From a virus: a DNA stretch of 64,000 nt. Each line of letters begins with the position of its first letter. Position 1 is the stretch's first letter. The stretch is from the IMG/VR virus record IMGVR_UViG_3300045988_056936, positions 1-64,000 of that record. One strand, 5' to 3'. Positions 3,201 through 56,506 of the stretch are shown here, piece by piece. The notes under the pieces were generated by a model, which was not told where the DNA came from, ran no database searches, and worked only from the letters and a program-made list of their open reading frames with translations. A program made the translations under genes and the position numbers.

Positions 3201-5778
3201 GTGACGTCATATACATAGTAATATGTATCAGGCTCTACCGTCCCTTCCTCTACTAACTTTAGATACTCTTCTTCAGTTAATGTTACTAAGTTCGGAATAT
3301 CCGATTCAGTAGCAATCTAATCTTCACCTATAAATAATCCTTCAGACCTAACGTCTACTACTAGCTAGCTCTCTCCCTCTACTACAGGAGATTTTATCTA
3401 TCCAACAGTGATGCTTTCTAAGGAACCATTCCCATCTACCTTTAAAGTCTTATCTAGCTCATCTTGAATAGCCTATTGGTCTTCGTCATACTATTTCTTT
3501 GTAACAAAGACAAAATCATCTCCTTCCATTCCTTCTCCTCTAAGACTTTCTTTGGTAACAAATATGTCATCAGTTTCTTCCTTAGTATAATGGTTAGATA
3601 AGGCTTTAGATAACAAGGACTCTGGGTCCTCTAAATCTAGATCAGTTTTAGGGGCATAATTCTCAGTTAACTCTTCAAGGGTAGCATACTTGGAAAGGTT
3701 AGAGATTGTCTAGTCTAAATCCGTTCTAATCTGTACGACAGTAGTATTTAGAGCTTTCTATTTCAACTATTCCTCTATCTTTTTACCCCATTCTGCTGAT
3801 AAGTAAAACTAATCATCATCTAGGCTGTCTTCATATATATAATAATATGTTTCTGCATGAAGATATGTTTTATCTTCGTCTATAGGTTTAAAATCTTCTG
3901 TGGTATTTTTAGACCATTCCTTATATTCAGCCTCTGTACAGGTGATTATCTAAATAGATTCATAAGAAGCTTTCCAACCTTCTTTGTATTTAATCTTAGA
4001 CTTATCTACTAGCATATAAATATTTCCGTTATCTATATTTGAAACGGTCATGCCTTGATAAGCATATTTCTCCGGAATAGAATATAATTCGTCTAAATTA
4101 TCGACTACTGTTCTATTATCAAGAGGTTTAGGAGTTTCTACGGTTAAAGCAACACCTAATGTAGCATCACCTGTATATTTAAATGCCATTATTGTGATAA
4201 AGTAAAGTTAATTTGATGAGGCAATGCTGAAGAATAAGTATCCTTCTTAGTCCATACTTTATAAGGAAATCCATTTATCTATTCAGTAGAAGTTTCCCAT
4301 CCACTTAAATCAACATTTAGGTATCCTAGTCCTCCATCTACTGTAAATGAATTTAGCTAAGTATTACTTCCAGGTAATTTTATAATAGCCTTTCCACTTA
4401 ATGAAAATGTAATAATTCCAGAAGATTGTCCAAATGGAACAAGACTCTATTTGATTAAACTATCTGTATTACCAGAATACCAAGGGTAGGTAGCAGTCAC
4501 CTATGCTGTAGTTGATATTGAACCAGCCTCCACCCTCTTGTCTGTAACCTCTCCCTTGTTGTTAATAAGATATTCTCCAGCAGCATAATTTACGGTACCA
4601 GAATGCACATAAACACCGATAGAATCATATGTTTCAGATTCTACAGGAGAATCATTATAGGTAATAGTTTCTTCTCTACCAGTTTCCTCTCCAGCATCAT
4701 TTTTTATAAATGTTAAAGTAGGGGTAAGTAAAGCGGATCCTACCTCCACAATCTAAGAGGTGAAGCTATAATACAACTAAGGATAAACCAAATCTCTAAC
4801 AACAGTAGGAAATAATAGAGTGTCTATAATCTCATTAAACGGCTTTCCTTTCAATTTTTCAACTGTAGTTCCTTGAATAACAGTAGAAGTAGTATCATCT
4901 GGAAGTTCAGTTTGATAAGTAGCTATAGTTTCTAAACTTGTCTATATATTTGTGATATTCTCAGTATTAGAATCTACTTTAGAATCAGTGTTCTTCTAAG
5001 CTTCCTATACTCCCTTAACTTCTTCCTTTACCTCTGTTAGAGATGGTTCCAGGTCTTTTACATATATTCCAGGTAGAACTACTGTGGAAGGTTCTCCTTC
5101 CTCCTCTACTGGAGGAATTTCCTACTGAATCAGATGTATTGCATTATCCTCCTACTAAGATAGAATTACTTCTAGAGTATTATCATCCTTTATTTCTATG
5201 GTTTTGGAGTTTCTTAGACTATTAGTTATCCAATTCTAGATGTTTTTGTCAACATCTATATTTTTGATAGACTCATTAATATCCTCTATTGCCTCATTAA
5301 TCTAGGTTATTTTCTCAGAAAGATTGTTTATGCCAGTTCTGTTAGATTCAATTTCTTCTTCAAGTTCTTCCTTAAGTACAGTAATAGAAGTTCTGATATT
5401 ACTTATATCAACTTTTATTTCCTCTATTTCTTCTGTATTAGCTTCGTACTAACTTATAAAGAATAAAGCATAATCTAAGGCATCTTTTACAGTATTGATA
5501 TTCTCTGCAACATCACTAGTATAAGTCCATTTCTATTCTATGTACTATACTAAATCTTTCTAGGCTTCTATAGTTCCTTCTATATTTCCCCAAAGAAGAC
5601 TCTACTCATCAGCGATACCTAGATTCTTTCTAACCTTAGCTCTTTCTAATTCAGTTCTATATTCTCCAAGATAGTTGTTTCTTAGGAGAGGTATAGGTTC
5701 ACTTTTTATTAAATGTCCTTTCTTTCCACAAGGCTTTATATCAGCATTGCTTACCGAAGTATAAATAGGCTGTATCAT
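284..5778 (-). CDS. Tail fibre / receptor-binding protein, possibly more than one gene, TAG-recoded, with the DGR variable region at the C-terminus. The 5' boundary is uncertain (candidate ATG at 5776-5778)
   Basis: ORF-track fragment 287..1459. My manual translation upstream continues in frame through TAG codons at 1493, 1631, 1712 and 1745 with no TAA or TGA. It yields ...YTETEKQKLSGIADNANNYVHPTTSGNKHIPAGGALG(Q)ILTF..., a phage tail-fibre-like motif. The C-terminus carries VR1. Confidence 0.45.
314..410 (-). repeat. DGR variable repeat VR1 at the extreme 3' end of the tail-fibre gene. GC-rich island
   Basis: Differs from TR only at TR adenines. Encodes ...LVGGSAGNGGYAGLGYFHSSYDVGGADSIVGFRTLN, then RVS and a TAA stop at 284-286. 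Its GC content stands out in an AT-rich genome. Confidence 0.85.
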
Positions 5779-16350: not shown

Positions 16351-17504
16351 ATTATACTTTGTATCATAAGTACAAGTGATTCTATTTATACCATCCTCCC
16401 ACCAAGGTTTATCTGATGGCTATCTAATACCACTTGGGATGGTTATTGTAGGAGTAGAAGTTTCTACTATAGCATCTACTATTTTAAATAATGTATCCAA
16501 GTCAAATTCTGGAAATTCATTATGTAAGTTTGTCAATGTCTTTTTAAAGTCTATCATATCCCTCAAATGTATTATCAATTATTGCTTTTTCTAGTGTAGT
16601 GTCTTTATATAGTCCATTTTTAATTAGATTTCTAACTGAATTGTCAACTACATTCCATATATCAATCAGTAATGATTTATTCTCCGGAACACTTCTAAGT
16701 GTACTTTCTAAATATCCGGCTTTTATCATATTTATTAGTTGACCGTTAATAAAGACTTCAAATTTAAATTCTTTATCCATATATTTTAGTATATTACACT
16801 TAGTCTATTTAATTCATCTAGGTAATCTAGAAACCATTGTTCATTTTGTTTTCCTTCTTCTGCAACAATCTCAATTAAAGATTCTGCTGCTAGGAGTATA
16901 GTTTCAGATAACTCTTTTAAATTTGGCTTAGTTAGTTCATTGTATTTATCAGTCAAGTTTAACATAATCCATCCAGTCTTTTATATATGATTTACATTCC
17001 TCTAAATCTGGATAGATACTTGCTATAGTGCAACCTGTTTTTGGATTCCTAAAATGATGGAGTTTTGCTTCCTCATTTTTCTCCTCTTCTATATTTCTAT
17101 TTAATGTTCTATTCCAGTAGTTGTATTTCTCATCTAGCATTTCCTTATCACACTCCTCCAATATTTTCATATTGGGATTACTCATTATTTTGTCATACTT
17201 TCTTTTTAAATTAGAAACTTTGACAACATCATTACCATTCAATACGACTGCACACTGTTTCATTTCACTACTTTATAAGTACATATCTTACCTATCTGCT
17301 TTCCTTGAATACTTATTTGTGGAAGAAAGTAGCAGGCTTGATTCTCAAATTCTTGAGGTACAAATATGTAATCAAATCTACATCCAACTACCTTATCGCA
17401 AACTTTATTCCAATCATCTCCCTCTTCAATAATAAGGGTCTTAGCTCCTGTTGGAGTTACAGCATAATTCTCATTTAAATTTATCATAACTATTAATTTT
17501 GGCG

Positions 17505-17576
17505 TTGCCCTACTAGGATTCGAACCCAGACTAAATGATTTAGAGTCATCTGTGCTGACCATTACACCATAGGGCA
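17505..17576 (-). tRNA. Amber-suppressor tRNA, anticodon CUA, tRNA-Gln-derived
   Basis: Manual cloverleaf: acceptor TGCCCTA/TAGGGCA (U1-A72) with discriminator A; D-arm GGTGTAATGGTC; anticodon stem GATGA/TCATT with loop CTCTAAA (U33, CUA, A37); T-arm CTGGG-TTCGAAT-CCTAG. The D-arm and acceptor are near-identical to tRNA-Gln(UUG) at 32536. It sits at the 5' head of the TAG-rich minus-strand block. Confidence 0.8.
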
Positions 17577-19245: not shown

Positions 19246-19975
19246 AAATGCCCATATGAACTCCATCATTGGAACATTGGTCAACGGAGAAATCAACAAC
19301 AAAACAAAAAAAATCAAAACCGAGTTAACTTTTGTAGTAGTTTTAGTTTTTATGTCTGGCTGATAGGAAAGACTATCATTTCTAGTAAAATCGTGTATGT
19401 TTCACGTGAAAATATGGAGAGTAAGGAGAAGAATGTTCCACAAACTCAAAGGCAGATTTTCCTACTTTTTCCAGTTTTCAAAAAATCGCCAGTAGGACGA
19501 GTTTTATAACTCATACTACAATGATTATTTACTCTAACATTAGCCTATAAAAAGGCAACAAAAAGCGGGGTTACGCAGATAGCCCAATATCCGAAAATAA
19601 CTGCTATTAATGAAAATGAGAGTTCGCAAACTTATCTCATGAGTAAGGAGGATTGAGCTATAAGATTGGTCACTTATAGCAATATATGAAAGTACTGCTG
19701 ACATACAAGTAGACCATGTATGTCATATTTTTATATGTTATGCAATTGTATTAGAAGTTGCCTGGTATAAGCCGCTAGATTAATAAGGCTAGCTGATAAG
19801 AGGATACCTCATAAGGGTATATTTCCTACCTCGAACTCAGTCGCAAGAATATGGATTAGCTACCTATATTCTTAGTGAACGTTAGTAACGTAGCTATTTG
19901 ATTTTCAGTATAGGAAACTGAGAATTAAGTAGTTGAATAACTCTCTATCTTATACTAGTTGCCAAGATAGAGTTT

Positions 19976-20045
19976 TCCCCATTAGTATAATGCATTGCGC
20001 CTTCCTCTAAAGAAGGAGATTCTGGTTCAAACCCGGAGTGGGGAA
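19976..20045 (+). tRNA. Second CUA-anticodon (amber-suppressor) tRNA, Gln-like acceptor, atypical 3-bp D-stem
   Basis: Acceptor TCCCCAT/GTGGGGA (U1-A72, U7·G66) with discriminator A; anticodon stem CCTTC/GAAGG with loop CTCTAAA (CUA); T-arm TCTGG-TTCAAAC-CCGGA. The D-arm is weak (GTA/TGC). Confidence 0.45.
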
Positions 20046-20851
20046 CTTAGTATTTGAGGACTACAGCTACTTGTAGGCTCTATTTGCTGTTAAGGACTAT
20101 AATGGGTACGCCCAGAGACTATGTAATTGTTGTGAAACAATTCAAAGGAGAGTGGCACAGGAAGGTCTTTTGATAGTGTTCATTTTTTATCCCAACAGCG
20201 GTGGGGATATTTTTAAAACTCAGCCTAGGAGAGTATAAAATACCATCTGATGAGACTAGGACGAAATATACTTTGTATATAATGGTATAACTAATTAAAA
20301 CTAAGAAGATGAAAAAGAGATATATTATTCCAGAGGAACTGCATTTTGCTTCTGCTAGCTGTGGATTTGAATGTAATAATTATGACGAGGTATTAGCGTT
20401 TGCTGGATATTTTCTATCTATCGGGTGTTCCTTTGAGGTTTCGGATCTCTATATCGAACCAAAGGGGAATTTAATTCCTTTAAAACAGTCGAACGAAGAA
20501 AGGGATGTATGGGAATATCTCATGCTAGAGTTTTAATAACTAAAACATAAATATTATGAGCAAATTGACAAAAAAGAAAACAGAAACTCTCTATGCCAAA
20601 ATGGTAAGAGAAGAAAAAGCTATGCAAATTGCTGCTCAATATGGTCTTCAATATGAAGTACTTCAGTCTATTAAGGCTGGATGTACTCCAGAAGAAGCCT
20701 TACGTGAATGGGATTTAGTATAGCTTTCTTTAAAAAACTTAATAACTTTCCAAGTCATTGAGGACACCAGTTTCTTATATGTTACGCATGAGAGGTCGAA
20801 CATACTCCTTGCGATATAAGTTTTAGGTGTAAAATGCAATACTAGTTATAT

Positions 20852-21187
20852 ATGAAAGAGATAAAAATTCTAGAAACAACAAAAGTTCTCTCTGATAGAG
20901 AGGCTGATTTACTTTGTTCCGTATTATGGTCTTTAGGTATTTATCCAGAGATTACAGCACTTGAAAGGAAAAATAGAAACATTACACTGGCGAGTATTCT
21001 TCCAGAAATGCAACCTAGGACAGCTAGCCGTATTAGAGCTATGTTGGATGATCAAGTTTATATCTCTCTCAACATTTTCATGGAAAACTATTCTTGGCGT
21101 GATTTCATGAAAATGCCTGGTGTTGGAAGGAAATCGCTAAGTGATTTAAGATCAGTTTTGCAAAAGTACGGATACAAAACATTCTAA
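20852..21187 (+). CDS. Small protein whose C-terminus resembles the RNA polymerase alpha-subunit C-terminal domain HhH motif (..MPGVGRKSLSDLRSVLQKYGY..)
   Basis: Motif resemblance only. Confidence 0.25.
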   Translation: MKEIKILETTKVLSDREADLLCSVLWSLGIYPEITALERKNRNITLASILPEMQPRTASRIRAMLDDQVYISLNIFMENYSWRDFMKMPGVGRKSLSDLRSVLQKYGYKTF

Positions 21188-21200
21188 CTCGACTTCGCGA

Positions 21201-21209
21201 GTATAAATA
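21201..21209 (+). promoter_or_regulatory. cGaGTATAAATA motif, copy 4, upstream of recoded gene 21316..22507
   Basis: ttcgcgagtataaataggc. Confidence 0.3.
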
Positions 21210-21315
21210 GGCTTTAGGCGGAGAGCGGTAGGTAGAATAGTCTACCTACGTAGTGTAAAATACTTGCTATTTAGCAAACAAATGTGTAGTATTCTATAAA
21301 TAAAAATTAAATATT

Positions 21316-35958: not shown

Positions 35959-36032
35959 GTCTGGATGCCTGAGTGGTCTAAGGGAACGGTCTGCAAAACC
36001 GTGTTTCGTGGGTTCGAATCCCACTCCAGATT
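35959..36032 (+). tRNA. tRNA-Cys(GCA), discriminator U73
   Basis: Acceptor GTCTGGA/TCCAGAT with discriminator T; anticodon stem ACGGT/ACCGT with loop CTGCAAA; T-arm GTGGG-TTCGAAT-CCCAC. Track ORFs overlapping it (35410..36024 and the 5' part of 35822..36481) are probably spurious there. Confidence 0.7.
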
Positions 36033-37495: not shown

Positions 37496-37804
37496 CAAAA
37501 TTTAAGTTTTATGAAAATAAAGTGTACAGTATGTAATAAAGAATTTTATTATGGAGACCATAACTCTCCAATGTTTATTGATGAGGTTTGGAACAAGATA
37601 ATAAATTACTTTAAGCTAACCAATTTTGAAAAAGAAGCTGCAAAGAAATTCTCCTCTTATTACAAAGGGGGAGGTAAAGATTATTATCCAGACCACCATG
37701 TGTTTATCTGTAGCGAATGTGCGGAGAAGGCTCTAGGTAGGGAAATAACTGATAAGGATATTAATGATTCATTATTTAATATCCCATTTAGAGAGAAGTA
37801 CTTT

Positions 37805-37889
37805 AAATCTTAATATCCGTGTGGGTGAATGGTTTAGCCATCAGTCTGCAAAACTGAAAAGAGAAATCTTTAATGAGGGTTCGAATCCC
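37805..37889 (+). tRNA. Atypical type-II tRNA with GCA anticodon and U73 (Cys identity elements) plus a 17-nt variable stem-loop
   Basis: Acceptor ATCCGTG/CACGGAT perfect, discriminator T; anticodon stem TCAGT/ACTGA with loop CTGCAAA; variable arm AAAGA-GAAA-TCTTT-AAT; T-arm GAGGG-TTCGAAT-CCCTC. Confidence 0.55.
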
Positions 37890-37919
37890 TCCACGGATTC
37901 TAATTTTAAATTTAAAAAT

Positions 37920-38701: not shown

Positions 38702-38780
38702 CGTGGAGTAGAGAAGTGGTCATCTCGCTAGGCTCATAACCTAGAAATCGTCATAAACGGTTCGAATCCTACCTCCGCAA
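38702..38780 (+). tRNA. tRNA-like element with CAU anticodon and initiator-like C1xA72, but a disrupted/extended T-arm. Possible pseudo-tRNA
   Basis: Acceptor CGTGGAG/CTCCGCA; D-arm GAGA/TCTC; anticodon stem CTAGG/CCTAG with loop CTCATAA. The T-loop TTCGAAT is present but the 5' T-stem strand is replaced by GTCATAAACGG. Confidence 0.3.
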
Positions 38781-39024
38781 CTAAACTCCTTTTGTGGCTC
38801 TGAATTAGATTAATTATTAACAATTTTAAACTTTGATGTTATGAAGAAAGTAATTAATGTTGTGAAGAAAGCTGCTAAGTGGTATTTTGAACAGAGTTCT
38901 AAGAGCTATACATGGTTAGTTTCTGGAACTATTCCGCCTCCTTATAGAGGTCTAGAGTAAAGATACTACTAAAAGGTAAGTACCAAAGGGGTACTTATCT
39001 ACACCCGTGGAGAAAATTAACTAT

Positions 39025-39622: not shown

Positions 39623-39695
39623 GGGCCGTTAGCTCAAATGGCTAGAGCGCTGGTTTTGCACACCGGAAGATAGGGTTCGAGTCCCTGCGTGTCCA
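39623..39695 (+). tRNA. tRNA-Ala(UGC) with G3·U70. The inner acceptor stem is weakly paired
   Basis: D-arm GCTC/GAGC; anticodon stem CTGGT/ACCGG with loop TTTGCAC; T-arm TAGGG-TTCGAGT-CCCTG. Acceptor GGGCCGT/CGTGTCC has only 4 of 7 pairs but includes G3·U70. Confidence 0.55.
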
Positions 39696-41311: not shown

Positions 41312-41872
41312 GGGCCTACTTGGATTTGACAGGCGATTACGAATTATAAGGACGTGTAGAGCGCAATCTCTTTAAACGAAGAAAACAAATAACTGCAGAA
41401 ATTGCACCTGTAAGAATGGCAGCCTAAGCTGCTGGCTTGTTGGTAGACACTATTAACTAAGTCGGGTTACGGGAGAGACCTAGAAACAGAAGAGGTTGAG
41501 TATATTGATATAATGGAGAGCTAGGCTCTAATCCTAGTAATATACTCTTAATCAGAACACTCTAAGAGTTAGTAAGACTGAATCTCCTACGTCATAAAAC
41601 AGATGGAAGATGTGTTCCATGAGATGTGACGAATCTCTAAAGTATCATCCCGTTCTCCAACGTAAATGGAGTGGTGGAACGTTGACTTCGGTCAGCCCTA
41701 TAGTTTGGTAGCTTGTAGATAAGCATCTAGAGAAATACTTAGTATGGACTCTTGTAAGACTTATAAAACTACCTAAATGCTAGAACTCCCTAGCTGATGT
41801 AATAAAAATGAGACGCACGTTATCCTTGTAACGAGGGTTGTTTGGACACGGGTTCGACTCCCGTTAGGTCCA
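41312..41872 (+). ncRNA. ssrA: tmRNA-like (SsrA) RNA. tRNA-like ends flank a long internal region (about 560 nt)
   Basis: The 5' end GGGCCTACTTGGATTTGACAGGCG compares with E. coli tmRNA GGGGCUGAUUCUGGAUUCGACGGG. The 3' end GGACACGGGTTCGACTCCCGTTAGGTCCA compares with GGACGGGGGUUCAAAUCCCCCCGGCUCCA. The 5' GGGCCTA pairs with the 3' TAGGTCC. A possible tag ORF ends ..VRMAA-TAA (gcagcctaa) at about 41430. Confidence 0.45.
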
Positions 41873-41878
41873 CATAAT

Positions 41879-54140: not shown

Positions 54141-54965
54141 TTGACTATGAGTAAGATAATAGGGCAAGACAAGTTAATTAAGGAAGTTAATAGAATATTT
54201 CAGGTATTTGTAAATAGTAATTGCAAGATAAGACCGCACTTTATTCTTACAGGTGAGAGCGGGTCTGGTAAGAGCTTTACTATTAAACAGTTATGTGATA
54301 TGAATGAACTTAGCTTTCTAGAAGTTAATGCAGCTCAAATAACTAAAGAGGGTATTTCTGGAAATAGTTTAAGCAAAATTCTATCTCCACTTGTTAACTA
54401 TAGTCACACACCTATTGTAGTCTTCGTAGACGAGTTTGATAAACTTTTCATCAACGGAAACACTAATAGCCAACTGGCTAATGAATCTACTGCCAGTGTA
54501 CAGAACGAGTTTCTCAAACTTTTAGAGTCTGATACTACTAGTGTTTTTGGCGATTATGGGAAGTACATATCAGTCCCTATTGATAATGTACTATTTGTGT
54601 TTGCTGGAGCATTCAATAATGAGCCTCACATTACATTAGATAGACTAAGAGACTTTGGAGTTAAAACAGAGTTTCTTGGAAGAGTAGGATTAATCTACAA
54701 TACTAAACCTCTCACTCTAGAGGATTTGTATTCTATCTTGGAGTGTTCAGACTTGTTGCAGAATTATCTTGACTTATTCTTTAATGTAAATAGAGAACAA
54801 GTCATTAGTGATTTGAAAGGGTATCTCGAAAGTTCTTTTCGCAATAATACTCTTGGAGCAAGAACAATTAATACTCTTATTCACCAATACTTTATCAAAG
54901 GTGGAAAACTCGAAACTGAAGAAGTAAAAGAAATAACTTTTAACAAAAAATTAGAATGGAAATAA
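54141..54965 (+). CDS. AAA+ ATPase (ClpX/HslU-like core)
   Basis: Walker A GESGSGKS, Walker B VVFVDEFDKLF, sensor ..FVFAGAF... Confidence 0.55.
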   Translation: MTMSKIIGQDKLIKEVNRIFQVFVNSNCKIRPHFILTGESGSGKSFTIKQLCDMNELSFLEVNAAQITKEGISGNSLSKILSPLVNYSHTPIVVFVDEFDKLFINGNTNSQLANESTASVQNEFLKLLESDTTSVFGDYGKYISVPIDNVLFVFAGAFNNEPHITLDRLRDFGVKTEFLGRVGLIYNTKPLTLEDLYSILECSDLLQNYLDLFFNVNREQVISDLKGYLESSFRNNTLGARTINTLIHQYFIKGGKLETEEVKEITFNKKLEWK

Positions 54966-56506
54966 TTAATGCTACAGATGGTTACAAGTTGGGCCATCAC
55001 AGAATGTACCCCGAAGGTACTGAACAAGTTTATAGTAACTGGACTCCTAGAAGTAATAAATACTTCCCAGAAGCAACCGAAGGTTCAGTAGTATTTGGTA
55101 TTCAATACCTAATCAAAGAATATCTCATTAAACAGTTTGAGAAAAACTTCTTTAATCTACCAAAGAAGGAAGCTGTGGAGATGTTCTATCGTAGAGTAAA
55201 CAACTTTGTTGGTATTGAATCCGTTGGGTACAGACATATTGAAGCTTTATATGACCTTGGGTATCTACCAATTCGCATAAAGGCTCTTCCTGAAGGTTCT
55301 GTGTGCCCTATTCGGGTTCCCATGATGACCATTACAAATACTCTACCCGAGTTCTTTTGGTTAACTAACTACTTAGAGACTATTATCAGCTGTACCTTGT
55401 GGATGCCATGCACATCTGCTACTAGAGCTAGGCTTTATAAGAAAGAGCTACATCGTCATGCTTGCAAGACTGGTTTTCCAACAGATGTAAATCTTGGTTT
55501 TTGTTGTCATGATTTCTCAATGCGAGGTATGGCGGGAATGGAAGCCGCAATTATATCTGGTATGGCGCATATGACTTCTTTTGTGGGAAGTGAAACTATT
55601 CCAGCTATTGCTGCTTTGGAAGAATATTATGGAGCTAATTCAGACGAGGAATTGATTGCTGCTACAGTTCCAGCAACAGAACACTCTGTAATGTGTGCTG
55701 GAGGGGAGGAAGATGAGCTGGGCACTTTCAAACGTCTAATTAATGATTTGTATCCTTCTGGGTTTGTTTCTATTGTATCTGATACTTGGGATTTCTGGAA
55801 TGTAATTGAAAATTTCTTGCCCAAGCTGAAGAAAGACATTATGGCTCGTGATGGTAGAGTAGTAATCCGTCCTGATAGTGGAGACCCAGTAGATATAATC
55901 TGCGGGTTGAGAACTAATCCTCACTTCAATACCAGAATGAAAGAAGGTAAGTATTATTGCTGCTATGCTCCGTTTAACGACGATGCAGAGTATGTTGAAG
56001 TGTCCGAAGGTCAATATTATGGGGCATATTATATGCTTGGTAAAATCTTCGGATGGAATACTACTTCAAAGGATTACCGTTATCCTAGCACTAAGGTTGG
56101 TCTGCTTTATGGAGATTCTATTACTCTGGAACGTCAAAAGCAAATCTACTTGAGATTAGAAAACGCTCATATGGCGGCTTGTAATCTCGTTCTGGGAGTA
56201 GGTTCATATTCCTATCAGTATGCAAGTAGAGATAGTCTTGGGTTTGCTATTAAGGCTACTGCTTGCGTAGTAAATGGCGAATTGAAAGAAATCTTCAAAC
56301 ATCCTAAAACTGATGATGGTACTAAGAACTCTTTGAAAGGTTTGATTGCTGTCTATAAATGTCTGGATGGGAAGTATACTGCTACCGACCAGGTCTCAAT
56401 CGAGGAGGAAAAAGAGGGATGCTTAGAGACTGTCTTTGAAGATGGTATCTTGAAGAAAGAATATTCTCTTGAAGAAATCAGACAAAGAATTGACCATGGA
56501 CTTTAA
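54956..56506 (+). CDS. nadV: Nicotinamide phosphoribosyltransferase family protein (NAMPT/NadV-like; candidate Namat of an NAD+ reconstitution pathway)
   Basis: N-terminal ..INATDGYKLGHHRMYPEGTEQVYSNWTPRS.. matches the NAMPT start (ATDSYK..H...YP). Length 516 aa. Confidence 0.75.
   Translation: MEIINATDGYKLGHHRMYPEGTEQVYSNWTPRSNKYFPEATEGSVVFGIQYLIKEYLIKQFEKNFFNLPKKEAVEMFYRRVNNFVGIESVGYRHIEALYDLGYLPIRIKALPEGSVCPIRVPMMTITNTLPEFFWLTNYLETIISCTLWMPCTSATRARLYKKELHRHACKTGFPTDVNLGFCCHDFSMRGMAGMEAAIISGMAHMTSFVGSETIPAIAALEEYYGANSDEELIAATVPATEHSVMCAGGEEDELGTFKRLINDLYPSGFVSIVSDTWDFWNVIENFLPKLKKDIMARDGRVVIRPDSGDPVDIICGLRTNPHFNTRMKEGKYYCCYAPFNDDAEYVEVSEGQYYGAYYMLGKIFGWNTTSKDYRYPSTKVGLLYGDSITLERQKQIYLRLENAHMAACNLVLGVGSYSYQYASRDSLGFAIKATACVVNGELKEIFKHPKTDDGTKNSLKGLIAVYKCLDGKYTATDQVSIEEEKEGCLETVFEDGILKKEYSLEEIRQRIDHGL

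Follow-up and report, generated by a model that had tools for sequence, protein, structure and literature searches.

The 64,000-nucleotide stretch of DNA analysed here, called the window in the following, comprises positions 1 to 64,000 of the IMG/VR virus record IMGVR_UViG_3300045988_056936 and is a phage segment with a G+C content of 35.7%. Between 17.5 and 48.4 kb, 27 tRNA genes were called by ARAGORN and one further tRNA gene by Rfam only, and the window also encodes a tmRNA and several ribozymes and small RNAs. The subject of this work is one gene of the tRNA array, an 85-nucleotide tRNA that combines the cysteine anticodon GCA with a variable region of 17 nucleotides containing a stem-loop (hereafter the long-armed tRNA). 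Bacterial class II tRNAs, with their long variable arm, are in the textbook view those for leucine, serine, tyrosine and selenocysteine (Sec). A canonical short-arm tRNA-Cys(GCA), called by ARAGORN as well as Rfam, is located 1.8 kb upstream and a gene for a GIY-YIG homing endonuclease directly downstream, both as reported in the initial annotation of this DNA. The features are listed in Table 1.

Table 1. Position and properties of the features of the window discussed in the text.
Feature	Position	Strand	Properties
Long-armed tRNA(GCA), 85 nt, position 1 to U73	37815..37899	+	ARAGORN; Rfam RF00005 56.3 bits; model R1 73.1 bits
Acceptor stem, 5' strand ATCCGTG	37815..37821	+	pairs with 37892-37898 (CACGGAT): A1:U72, U2:A71, C3:G70
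D arm	37824..37839	+	3-bp stem GGT/GCC (U12:G23 wobble), 10-nt loop GAATGGTTTA
Anticodon arm	37841..37857	+	TCAGT-CTGCAAA-ACTGA; loop at 37846-37852, GCA at 37848-37850, A37
Variable region, 17 nt	37858..37874	+	stem AAAGA/TCTTT (37858-37862 / 37867-37871), loop GAAA (37863-37866), linker AAT (37872-37874)
T arm	37875..37891	+	GAGGG-TTCGAAT-CCCTC
Discriminator U73	37899..37899	+	
Canonical short-arm tRNA-Cys(GCA)	35959..36032	+	G1/U72 wobble, U2:A71, C3:G70, U73
GIY-YIG homing-endonuclease gene, 211 codons	37920..38555	+	PF01541 49.3 bits; start 21 nt past the long-armed tRNA
100-aa open reading frame (ORF) with Cys-x-x-Cys motifs	37511..37813	+	upstream; stop codon ends 1 nt before the long-armed tRNA
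First suppressor tRNA(CUA)	17504-17576	-	
Second suppressor tRNA(CUA)	19976-20046	+	
RAGATH-14 RNA	19753-19946		Rfam 183 bits
RAGATH-1 hammerhead ribozyme	20217-20286		Rfam 69 bits
Pistol ribozyme	21187-21255		Rfam 63 bits
tRNA-Lys	25114-25187		full CCA encoded
tRNA-Tyr(GUA), first	26018-26100		
tRNA-Tyr(GUA), second	26779-26862		
tRNA-Gln	32536-32608		
tRNA-Met(CAU)	38702-38781		11-nt variable region; Rfam 39 bits
tRNA called by Rfam only	39623-39695		39.5 bits; not called by ARAGORN
tmRNA	41312-41875		Rfam 66 bits
ORF, nicotinamide/nicotinate phosphoribosyltransferase-like	54956-56506		PF04095 (NAMPT_N), 112 bits

The initial annotation had placed the long-armed tRNA at 37805-37889. The features that it described are all in the sequence, only its numbers were shifted by -10. 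At the true span the acceptor stem that had been called perfect indeed consists of seven Watson-Crick pairs, and the anticodon loop CTGCAAA, the discriminator U and the arm AAAGA-GAAA-TCTTT are present as well, the latter followed by the linker AAT. U8 and G9 are located between acceptor stem and D stem and A26 precedes the anticodon arm; the D arm contains a G13/A22 mismatch, A14, A15 and G18G19, and A15 is matched by U48, the last base of the variable region. Taken together the tRNA is sound, with all stems intact and with U8, A14, G18G19 and the TTCGAAT T loop in place. It is followed by C74 (position 37900), and a CCA end is not encoded.

ARAGORN called the span as tRNA-Cys(GCA) with this same cloverleaf. 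The Rfam match covers the full tRNA model (positions 1-71, E 9e-10 in a 32-kb search) and exceeds the gathering score of 29 bits; the arm is an insertion relative to the model, and the other models of the clan scored lower than this general one. An unconstrained fold (-26.7 kcal/mol, z = -2.8) reproduced the acceptor stem together with the anticodon, variable and T arms. The initial annotation had considered that a covariance model might call another register of the anticodon stem, and none was called by any method. Another anticodon register or a pseudogene was rejected, since ARAGORN, Rfam and two custom covariance models agree on one cloverleaf. Also rejected was an acceptor/T branch of the 8/4 or 9/3 type: an eighth pair would have to join U8 to C65, and all five pairs of the T stem are perfect.

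The proposal that a tRNA of class II shape carries the two major elements of cysteine identity was confirmed. GCA and U73 are the major determinants for cysteinyl-tRNA synthetase (CysRS) (PMC5389517; PMC9976931), and here the anticodon G34 C35 A36 lies, as in CysRS substrates, in a 7-nucleotide loop closed by a 5-bp stem. Two features differ from a CysRS substrate, namely the first pair, which is A1:U72 instead of G1:C72, and the variable region, with 17 instead of 4-5 nucleotides. G1:C72 is the commonest first pair in tRNA-Cys and is read by the CP1 domain of CysRS. Compared with canonical class I tRNA-Cys, the long-armed tRNA has the same 7/5 cloverleaf, the GCA in a CUGCAAA loop, U73, a 3-bp D stem and a purine-purine mismatch at 13/22, whereas the canonical form has a variable region of 5 nucleotides without the 5-bp stem found here, G1:C72 or G1/U72 as first pair, and G15:C48 (G15:G48 in E. 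coli) in place of A15:U48.

The two tRNA-Cys genes of the window resemble each other. They share U72, U2:A71, C3:G70, G5:C68 and the G13/A22 mismatch, and with the anticodon masked and the arm removed, the canonical tRNA-Cys is the best match of the long-armed tRNA in the window (score 28, next 22). A covariance model built from 61 long-armed phage tRNA(GCA) with the lineage of the window excluded (R1) gave its top scores to the same two genes, the canonical tRNA-Cys being first with 76.8 bits and the long-armed tRNA second; the window tRNAs for Ser reached 64.8 and 49.8 bits, those for Tyr 56.0 and 42.1 bits and those for Leu about 43 bits.

Phage tRNAs of class II isotypes from the loci fetched for Cys (see below) served for comparison. 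Those for Ser have G73 in 57 of 71 sequences, G2:C71 in 65 and A3:U70 in 59, and an arm of 4-7 bp that is followed by a single unpaired base (45 of 69). In tRNA-Tyr, A73 is found in 36 of 39, G2:C71 in 30 and G3:C70 in 27 sequences, and an arm of about 3 bp precedes three unpaired bases. Nearly all tRNA-Leu have A73 (89/91), with mixed acceptor pairs and an arm of mostly 4 bp, usually without a base on its 5' side and with one unpaired base after it. The long-armed tRNA, with U73, U2:A71, C3:G70 and G11:C24, shows none of the acceptor-end features of these three isotypes, and three unpaired bases follow its arm. A second covariance model, made from 40 phage tRNA-Ser (R2), gave the long-armed tRNA 58.2 bits and the true Ser tRNAs of the window 83.1 and 80.6 bits, while the canonical tRNA-Cys (60.9 bits) and tRNA-Trp (56.7 bits) scored at the level of the long-armed tRNA. 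The comparison with isotype-specific models suggested in the initial annotation was thus made with R1 and R2 built here, and it places the long-armed tRNA beside Cys and, in R2, level with non-Ser tRNAs. Among the three readings proposed there, a Ser-chargeable tRNA reading UGY, a Cys tRNA with an inserted arm and a Sec-like relic, the second is therefore favoured. Most likely, a Cys-type body carries the 17-nucleotide arm as a structural extra, and the arm is no sign of Ser, Tyr, Leu or Sec identity.

To see the long-armed tRNA in context, viral contigs were scanned with the pattern CTGCAAA-N(20-32)-GGTTCGAATCC, the spacing of which is possible only with a long variable region; arm lengths are given as called by ARAGORN. 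Because all scans, including those for other isotypes, required a fixed T-loop sequence, the samples are biased and the counts are lower bounds, and group fractions hold among the matches listed. At least 119 stretches in viral contigs match the pattern, and in most of them ARAGORN found a long-armed tRNA(GCA), amounting to at least 91 genes with at least 64 distinct sequences. The premise that a long-armed Cys tRNA is a rarity thus had to be given up, since such tRNAs are common in phage contigs. In 596 Gb of bacterial and archaeal genomes at least 120 stretches match, and among the matches listed only 12, in 11 loci, are such tRNAs; five of these 11 loci have 10-29 tRNA genes within 8 kb and look like phage arrays. 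Three cellular cases have bodies of their own. In the metagenome-assembled genome (MAG) of an Acidobacteriota member (L183, 6939-7034), a long-armed GCA tRNA has a Ser-type body (GGAGAGA..., G73) and, judged by its sequence, could insert serine at cysteine codons. Nearly identical long-armed GCA tRNAs (GGGGGTAATGGCGCTGGGCGC..., U73) in an unidentified bacterium (L124) and an Actinomycetes MAG (L166) look selC*- or allo-like, two types of long-armed tRNA that are discussed below.

Within the phage group, 61 of the 64 listed sequences have U73 and 58 have G1:C72, and there is no preference at 2:71. Positions 15:48 are G:C in 54 sequences and A:U in five. The D arm has a 3-bp stem with the loop consensus GAGTGGTTGAA, and the usual variable arm consists of one nucleotide, 3-4 bp, a tetraloop (often GAAA) and a 3-nucleotide linker (CAC or CGC). 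This architecture fits 33 of the 64 listed sequences, compared with 5.3 +/- 2.2 in shuffles. Each of the three arm pairs differs at both of its bases in 22-26 of the listed sequences when these are aligned unfitted, and on this comparison the arm of the group is kept as a helix by compensatory changes. A more general layout of the arm (0-2 nucleotides, at least 3 bp, a loop of 3-7 nucleotides, a 3-nucleotide 3' linker and a last base matching position 15) is also found in the window tRNA, with 0 nucleotides, 5 bp, GAAA and AAT and with A15:U48. The nearest neighbours of the group are mixed, with 21 Ser, 18 short Cys (a type that supplied just 15 of the 908 candidates) and 7 Tyr tRNAs; the group may have originated either as a Cys tRNA with an inserted arm or as a re-identified tRNA of Tyr or Ser type.

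Closer relatives of the window were fetched with the 100-aa ORF upstream of the tRNA as query. They belong to a lineage of human-gut phages with genomes of about 186 kb, and across 12 aligned contigs none of the 85 sites of the long-armed tRNA is variable, whereas the flanks differ by 3-16% and most flanking 85-nucleotide bins vary at 10-55 sites. A pattern reaching from the D arm to the T loop with identical spacing was found in 14 IMG/VR contigs and nowhere else, matches to the D-arm motif of the lineage scanned with any spacing were likewise confined to this lineage, and altogether an identical copy of the tRNA is present in more than 14 related phage contigs. In a BLAST search against GenBank phages, a method that is weak for 85-nucleotide queries, only the unannotated 7-kb fragment MT837398.1 had the same tRNA, and a cultured phage carrying it was not found. 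A 153-kb contig with the same two tRNA-Cys genes is part of a MAG labelled 'uncultured Clostridium sp.', which is weak evidence for a host link. The relative IMGVR_UViG_3300045988_058617 (L250) contains a rearranged copy at 4305-4406: between CTG repeats, 8 nucleotides (CTGCAAAA) of the anticodon loop are deleted, and after the arm 25 nucleotides are inserted, which are flanked by ATGAG repeats and could lengthen the arm to a 7-bp helix (AGAGAAA/TTTCTCT). With the anticodon loop gone, this copy still reaches 36 bits in Rfam; possible explanations are a pseudogene, an error in the assembly or some other cause.

From these data we consider it probable that the long-armed tRNA is a functional, phage-encoded second tRNA-Cys which is expressed, charged with cysteine and used in translation. 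It would be transcribed with the plus-strand tRNA array of the phage, which has a genome of about 186 kb and is TAG-recoded, and would then be trimmed, and the CCA end would be completed, since only C74 is encoded. The host CysRS would recognise U73 and the GCA anticodon and charge the tRNA with cysteine, which would then be delivered at UGU and UGC codons. A precedent is selC* tRNA-Cys, a long-armed tRNA that CysRS charges with cysteine (PMC5389517). As to the purpose of the arm, our guess is that it makes this tRNA-Cys structurally unlike that of the host and unlike the short one of the phage itself, so that the armed form could sustain cysteine decoding if a tRNA-directed nuclease or another factor removes the ordinary form.

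Several observations weigh against a functional second tRNA-Cys. The window tRNA is an outlier of the phage group: it lacks the G1:C72 consensus, its D loop has 10 nucleotides (GAAUGGUUUA) and not 11 (GAGUGGUUGAA), its linker is AAU instead of CAC or CGC, its 15:48 pair is the less common A:U, and its arm is AU-rich, has 5 bp and abuts the anticodon stem. The window tRNA may be of separate origin from the other members. A1:U72 is unusual, and selC* tRNA-Cys with this pair needed a dedicated CysRS variant (PMC5389517). U72 is found in the canonical tRNA-Cys of the window too (as G1/U72), which suggests from the sequence that the host enzyme tolerates it. Sequence-only profiles with the anticodon masked gave the long-armed tRNA 30.8 bits for long-arm Cys, 29.4 for Ser, 20.0 for Leu, 19.1 for short Cys and 12.2 for Tyr, and therefore cannot split long-arm Cys from Ser, a distinction that required covariance models and the features of the acceptor end. 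In addition, the 425 bases upstream of the tRNA are equally invariant in the close relatives, so that conservation is not specific to the tRNA and is compatible with selection without being a proof of it; and since all copies are identical, the close relatives provide no covariation. Finally, the copy of L250 without an anticodon loop indicates that the gene can be lost, unless it is an assembly error.

Among the alternatives, the one that survives best, and which we still regard as unlikely, is that the tRNA is made as a decoy, sponge or sensor-blocker for a host tRNA-directed nuclease or tRNA-binding protein and that decoding is not its main role. Defence nucleases cut tRNAs in the variable loop, as Septu and Retron-Eco7 PtuAB do with tRNA-Tyr, and phage tRNAs counter them, the tRNA-Tyr of T5 by resisting through its distinctive variable loop (PMC13096335, PMC11555353). 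The adjoining GIY-YIG gene would fit, since the GIY-YIG enzyme SegB of T6 amplifies a tRNA locus and thereby allows escape from Septu (PMC13096335). The phage already has a canonical tRNA-Cys, and enlarged variable regions occur across many phage tRNA isotypes. In the long-armed tRNA, nevertheless, the set of Cys identity elements is full, the anticodon loop is perfect and the 7/5 branch is compatible with EF-Tu, and the group has kept U73 almost throughout; a pure decoy would need none of this. A defence nuclease directed at tRNA-Cys was not found in our literature search, and the argument for a decoy is one of analogy throughout.

A mistranslating or ambiguous tRNA, in which seryl-tRNA synthetase (SerRS) binds the arm and charges serine wholly or partly so that UGU and UGC are read as serine, appears very unlikely. 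SerRS relies on the long arm and ignores the anticodon, and G73 or U73 is considered compatible with SerRS for allo-tRNAs (PMC5389517). The 5-bp stem is within the range of phage tRNA-Ser, 11 of 71 phage tRNA-Ser have U73, the D arm is like that of the window tRNA-Ser(GCU), and the Ser profile comes close to the long-arm Cys profile. However, this profile match is local and omits the acceptor stem, the acceptor pairs U2:A71 and C3:G70 are not those of tRNA-Ser, most Ser tRNAs with U73 start with GGA, and G11:C24 replaces the commoner C11:G24. Three unpaired bases instead of one follow the arm, the R2 score is 22-25 bits under that of true Ser tRNAs, and a genuine Ser-bodied GCA tRNA such as that of L183 looks different. 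A proteome-wide replacement of cysteine by serine would also be costly. The Ser-chargeable reading of the initial annotation is therefore not followed here.

We give the same low standing to the possibility that the gene is a redundant duplicate in decay, with the arm as a tolerated neutral insertion that has no selected role. The canonical tRNA-Cys 1.8 kb upstream, the damaged copy of L250, the outlier position with A1:U72 and the conservation extending into the upstream bases would all agree with it. Decay does not agree with a tRNA that has a perfect structure and the same sequence in at least 14 contigs with flanks that are 3-16% apart, nor with a group that maintains its arm helix by compensatory changes along with U73 and the 15:48 match, nor with the occurrence of the same arm layout in independent lineages and in other isotypes.

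Least credible is a derivative of tRNA-Tyr, tRNA-Leu or tRNA-Sec retaining its old identity: the three unpaired bases on the 3' side correspond to the arm geometry of phage tRNA-Tyr, GCA is one change away from GUA, and the tRNA-Tyr of Acinetobacter phage BS46 has the D arm and the CAC linker of the long-arm Cys group, but U73 stands in place of the A73 of Tyr and Leu tRNAs and C35 in place of U35, the Tyr and Leu profile scores are far below those of true members (Tyr 42-54 bits, Leu 62-64 bits, 42-65 bits overall), and the Sec relic considered in the initial annotation would have a 13-bp (8/5) branch, a 6-bp D stem with a 4-nucleotide loop and the anticodon UCA, where we find 7/5, 3 bp with a 10-nucleotide loop, and GCA.

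Enlarged variable regions are not restricted to tRNA-Cys. In the loci fetched for Cys, variable regions of 12-24 nucleotides were called by ARAGORN in tRNAs for Thr, Asn, Met, Val, Lys, Gln, Ile, Asp, Glu, Pro and Arg. A scan for tRNA-Thr(UGU) showed that 99 of the 116 listed IMG/VR loci (L262-L377) have a long-armed form, with at least 75 distinct sequences (e.g. L279 and L282). All but three of those listed start with GCC or GCU (G1:C72, C2:G71), U73 is found in 64, and in its layout the arm agrees with the Cys group (e.g. A-GGC-GAAA-GCC-CAC). The scan for tRNA-Gly(UCC), which was meant as a negative control, gave 91 matches, and 55 of these are tRNA-Gly whose variable region is long and which start with the usual GCGGG and have U73. 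Since each armed isotype keeps its own acceptor features, the arm alone does not change identity, which argues against the readings with a changed identity. Many tRNA-Gly(UCC) genes in L378-L468 (e.g. L379, L386, L388 and L399) and some tRNA-Val genes (L024, L098) have a variable region of 15 nucleotides with the recurrent motif AGGCGAATAG(G/T)TT(A/C)C, in which no obvious hairpin is seen and which is set in otherwise different tRNA bodies.

Reasoning by analogy with phage tRNAs that escape defence, one might suppose that enlarged arms are an isotype-independent trait of phage tRNAs (Cys, Thr, Gly, Asn, Met, Val, Lys and others) which is selected because the arm alters how host tRNA-directed nucleases or phage factors perceive the tRNA core, and that the phage keeps an armed beside an unarmed tRNA-Cys as an insurance; we regard this as a doubtful, tentative idea. 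If true, 7/5 'class II-like' tRNAs outside Leu, Ser, Tyr and Sec would be a new structural class with an anti-defence role, for example by evading nucleases that cut the variable loop, such as Septu or retron PtuAB. Like the tRNA-Tyr of T5, which acts against Retron-Eco7 PtuAB, and that of T6, which acts against Septu (PMC11555353, PMC13096335), the long-armed tRNA-Cys is a phage isoacceptor whose variable region is unlike that of the host. Its location in a tRNA array and beside a gene for a GIY-YIG homing endonuclease is a further similarity, and with this gene nearby an insurance against tRNA-directed defence is a possibility for the two tRNA-Cys of the window. The long-armed tRNA-Cys is linked to the T5 and T6 cases by analogy only. 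To our knowledge, no defence system that targets tRNA-Cys is known.

The literature contains several other departures from the textbook, namely selC* tRNA-Cys, allo-tRNAs with 8/4 or 9/3 branches, nematode nev-tRNAs, and phage tRNAs for Ser and His with an 8/4 branch. The selC* tRNA-Cys (Mukai et al., Nucleic Acids Res 2017, PMC5389517) are similar to the tRNA described here, with a long arm, U73, GCA and in some cases A1:U72. They are found in anaerobic bacteria with selenocysteine genes and their A1:U72 forms use a dedicated CysRS*, whereas the long-armed tRNA has a 7/5 branch and a normal 5-bp anticodon stem and is encoded in a phage tRNA array. The allo-tRNAs and nev-tRNAs (PMC5389517; PMC3333845) also combine a long arm with an anticodon that is not for Ser, Leu or Tyr, but their identity remains that of Ser or Leu, and the amino acid they receive does not correspond to their anticodon; here, the acceptor end fits the amino acid of the anticodon, and the branch is 7/5, in contrast to the allo-tRNAs. 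Bacterial class II tRNA-Tyr is similar in its short arm with about three unpaired bases on the 3' side, in being charged by a class I synthetase and in an anticodon that differs by one base, and the tRNA-Tyr of phage BS46 has a similar body; A73, U35 and the low Tyr profile scores set the two apart.

In the full-text literature we found neither a 7/5 long-armed tRNA-Cys nor a general enlargement of variable arms in phage tRNAs; subscription papers may hold an earlier description. The known exceptions (selC* tRNA-Cys, allo-tRNAs and nev-tRNAs) are rare and mostly have abnormal acceptor/T branches or a mismatched identity. The tRNA described here is an ordinary 7/5 tRNA with full cysteine identity and a stem-loop in the variable region, and tRNAs built in this way are met again in numerous unrelated phage contigs, also with other amino acids. 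If such tRNAs are charged normally, the synthetases for cysteine, threonine and glycine (CysRS, ThrRS and GlyRS) must be tolerant of a large arm, a mismatch between anticodon and isotype should not be reported for these genes by annotation pipelines, and the arms could be used as natural scaffolds in the design of orthogonal tRNAs. If the arm protects against defences that cut tRNAs, it would be a new move in the contest between phage and host over tRNAs.

The genome around the tRNA is recoded: the phage decodes TAG as a sense codon. Between 1 and 16 kb, stop-free coverage per 4-kb bin is 10-58% with the standard code compared with 92-100% with TAG as sense, and the window contains two suppressor tRNA(CUA) genes. 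The GIY-YIG gene has six TAG codons in frame and is a complete gene only when these are translated; it is context, outside the tRNA itself. Usage of UGU and UGC, which the initial annotation had suggested as a clue, is ordinary (10.8 and 5.3 per 1000 codons) and thus uninformative. An aminoacyl-tRNA synthetase was not among the nine proteins of the window that were scanned, in a phage genome of about 186 kb, and a promoter scan remained at chance level. Throughout the array the tRNAs have C74 next to the discriminator, and a full CCA is encoded only in tRNA-Lys, so that all others would depend on a CCA-adding enzyme.

Some minor observations concern other genes of the window. The first suppressor tRNA resembles the tRNA-Gln of the window, and RAGATH-14 RNA, RAGATH-1 hammerhead ribozyme and Pistol ribozyme are clustered around the second suppressor tRNA; the tmRNA is located within the tRNA array. 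The T stem of tRNA-Met(CAU) is weak in the ARAGORN drawing. Since the two tRNA-Tyr(GUA) genes differ from each other, Tyr is another isotype with two structurally distinct copies of the same anticodon. The nicotinamide/nicotinate phosphoribosyltransferase-like ORF points to a putative phage-encoded NAD salvage.

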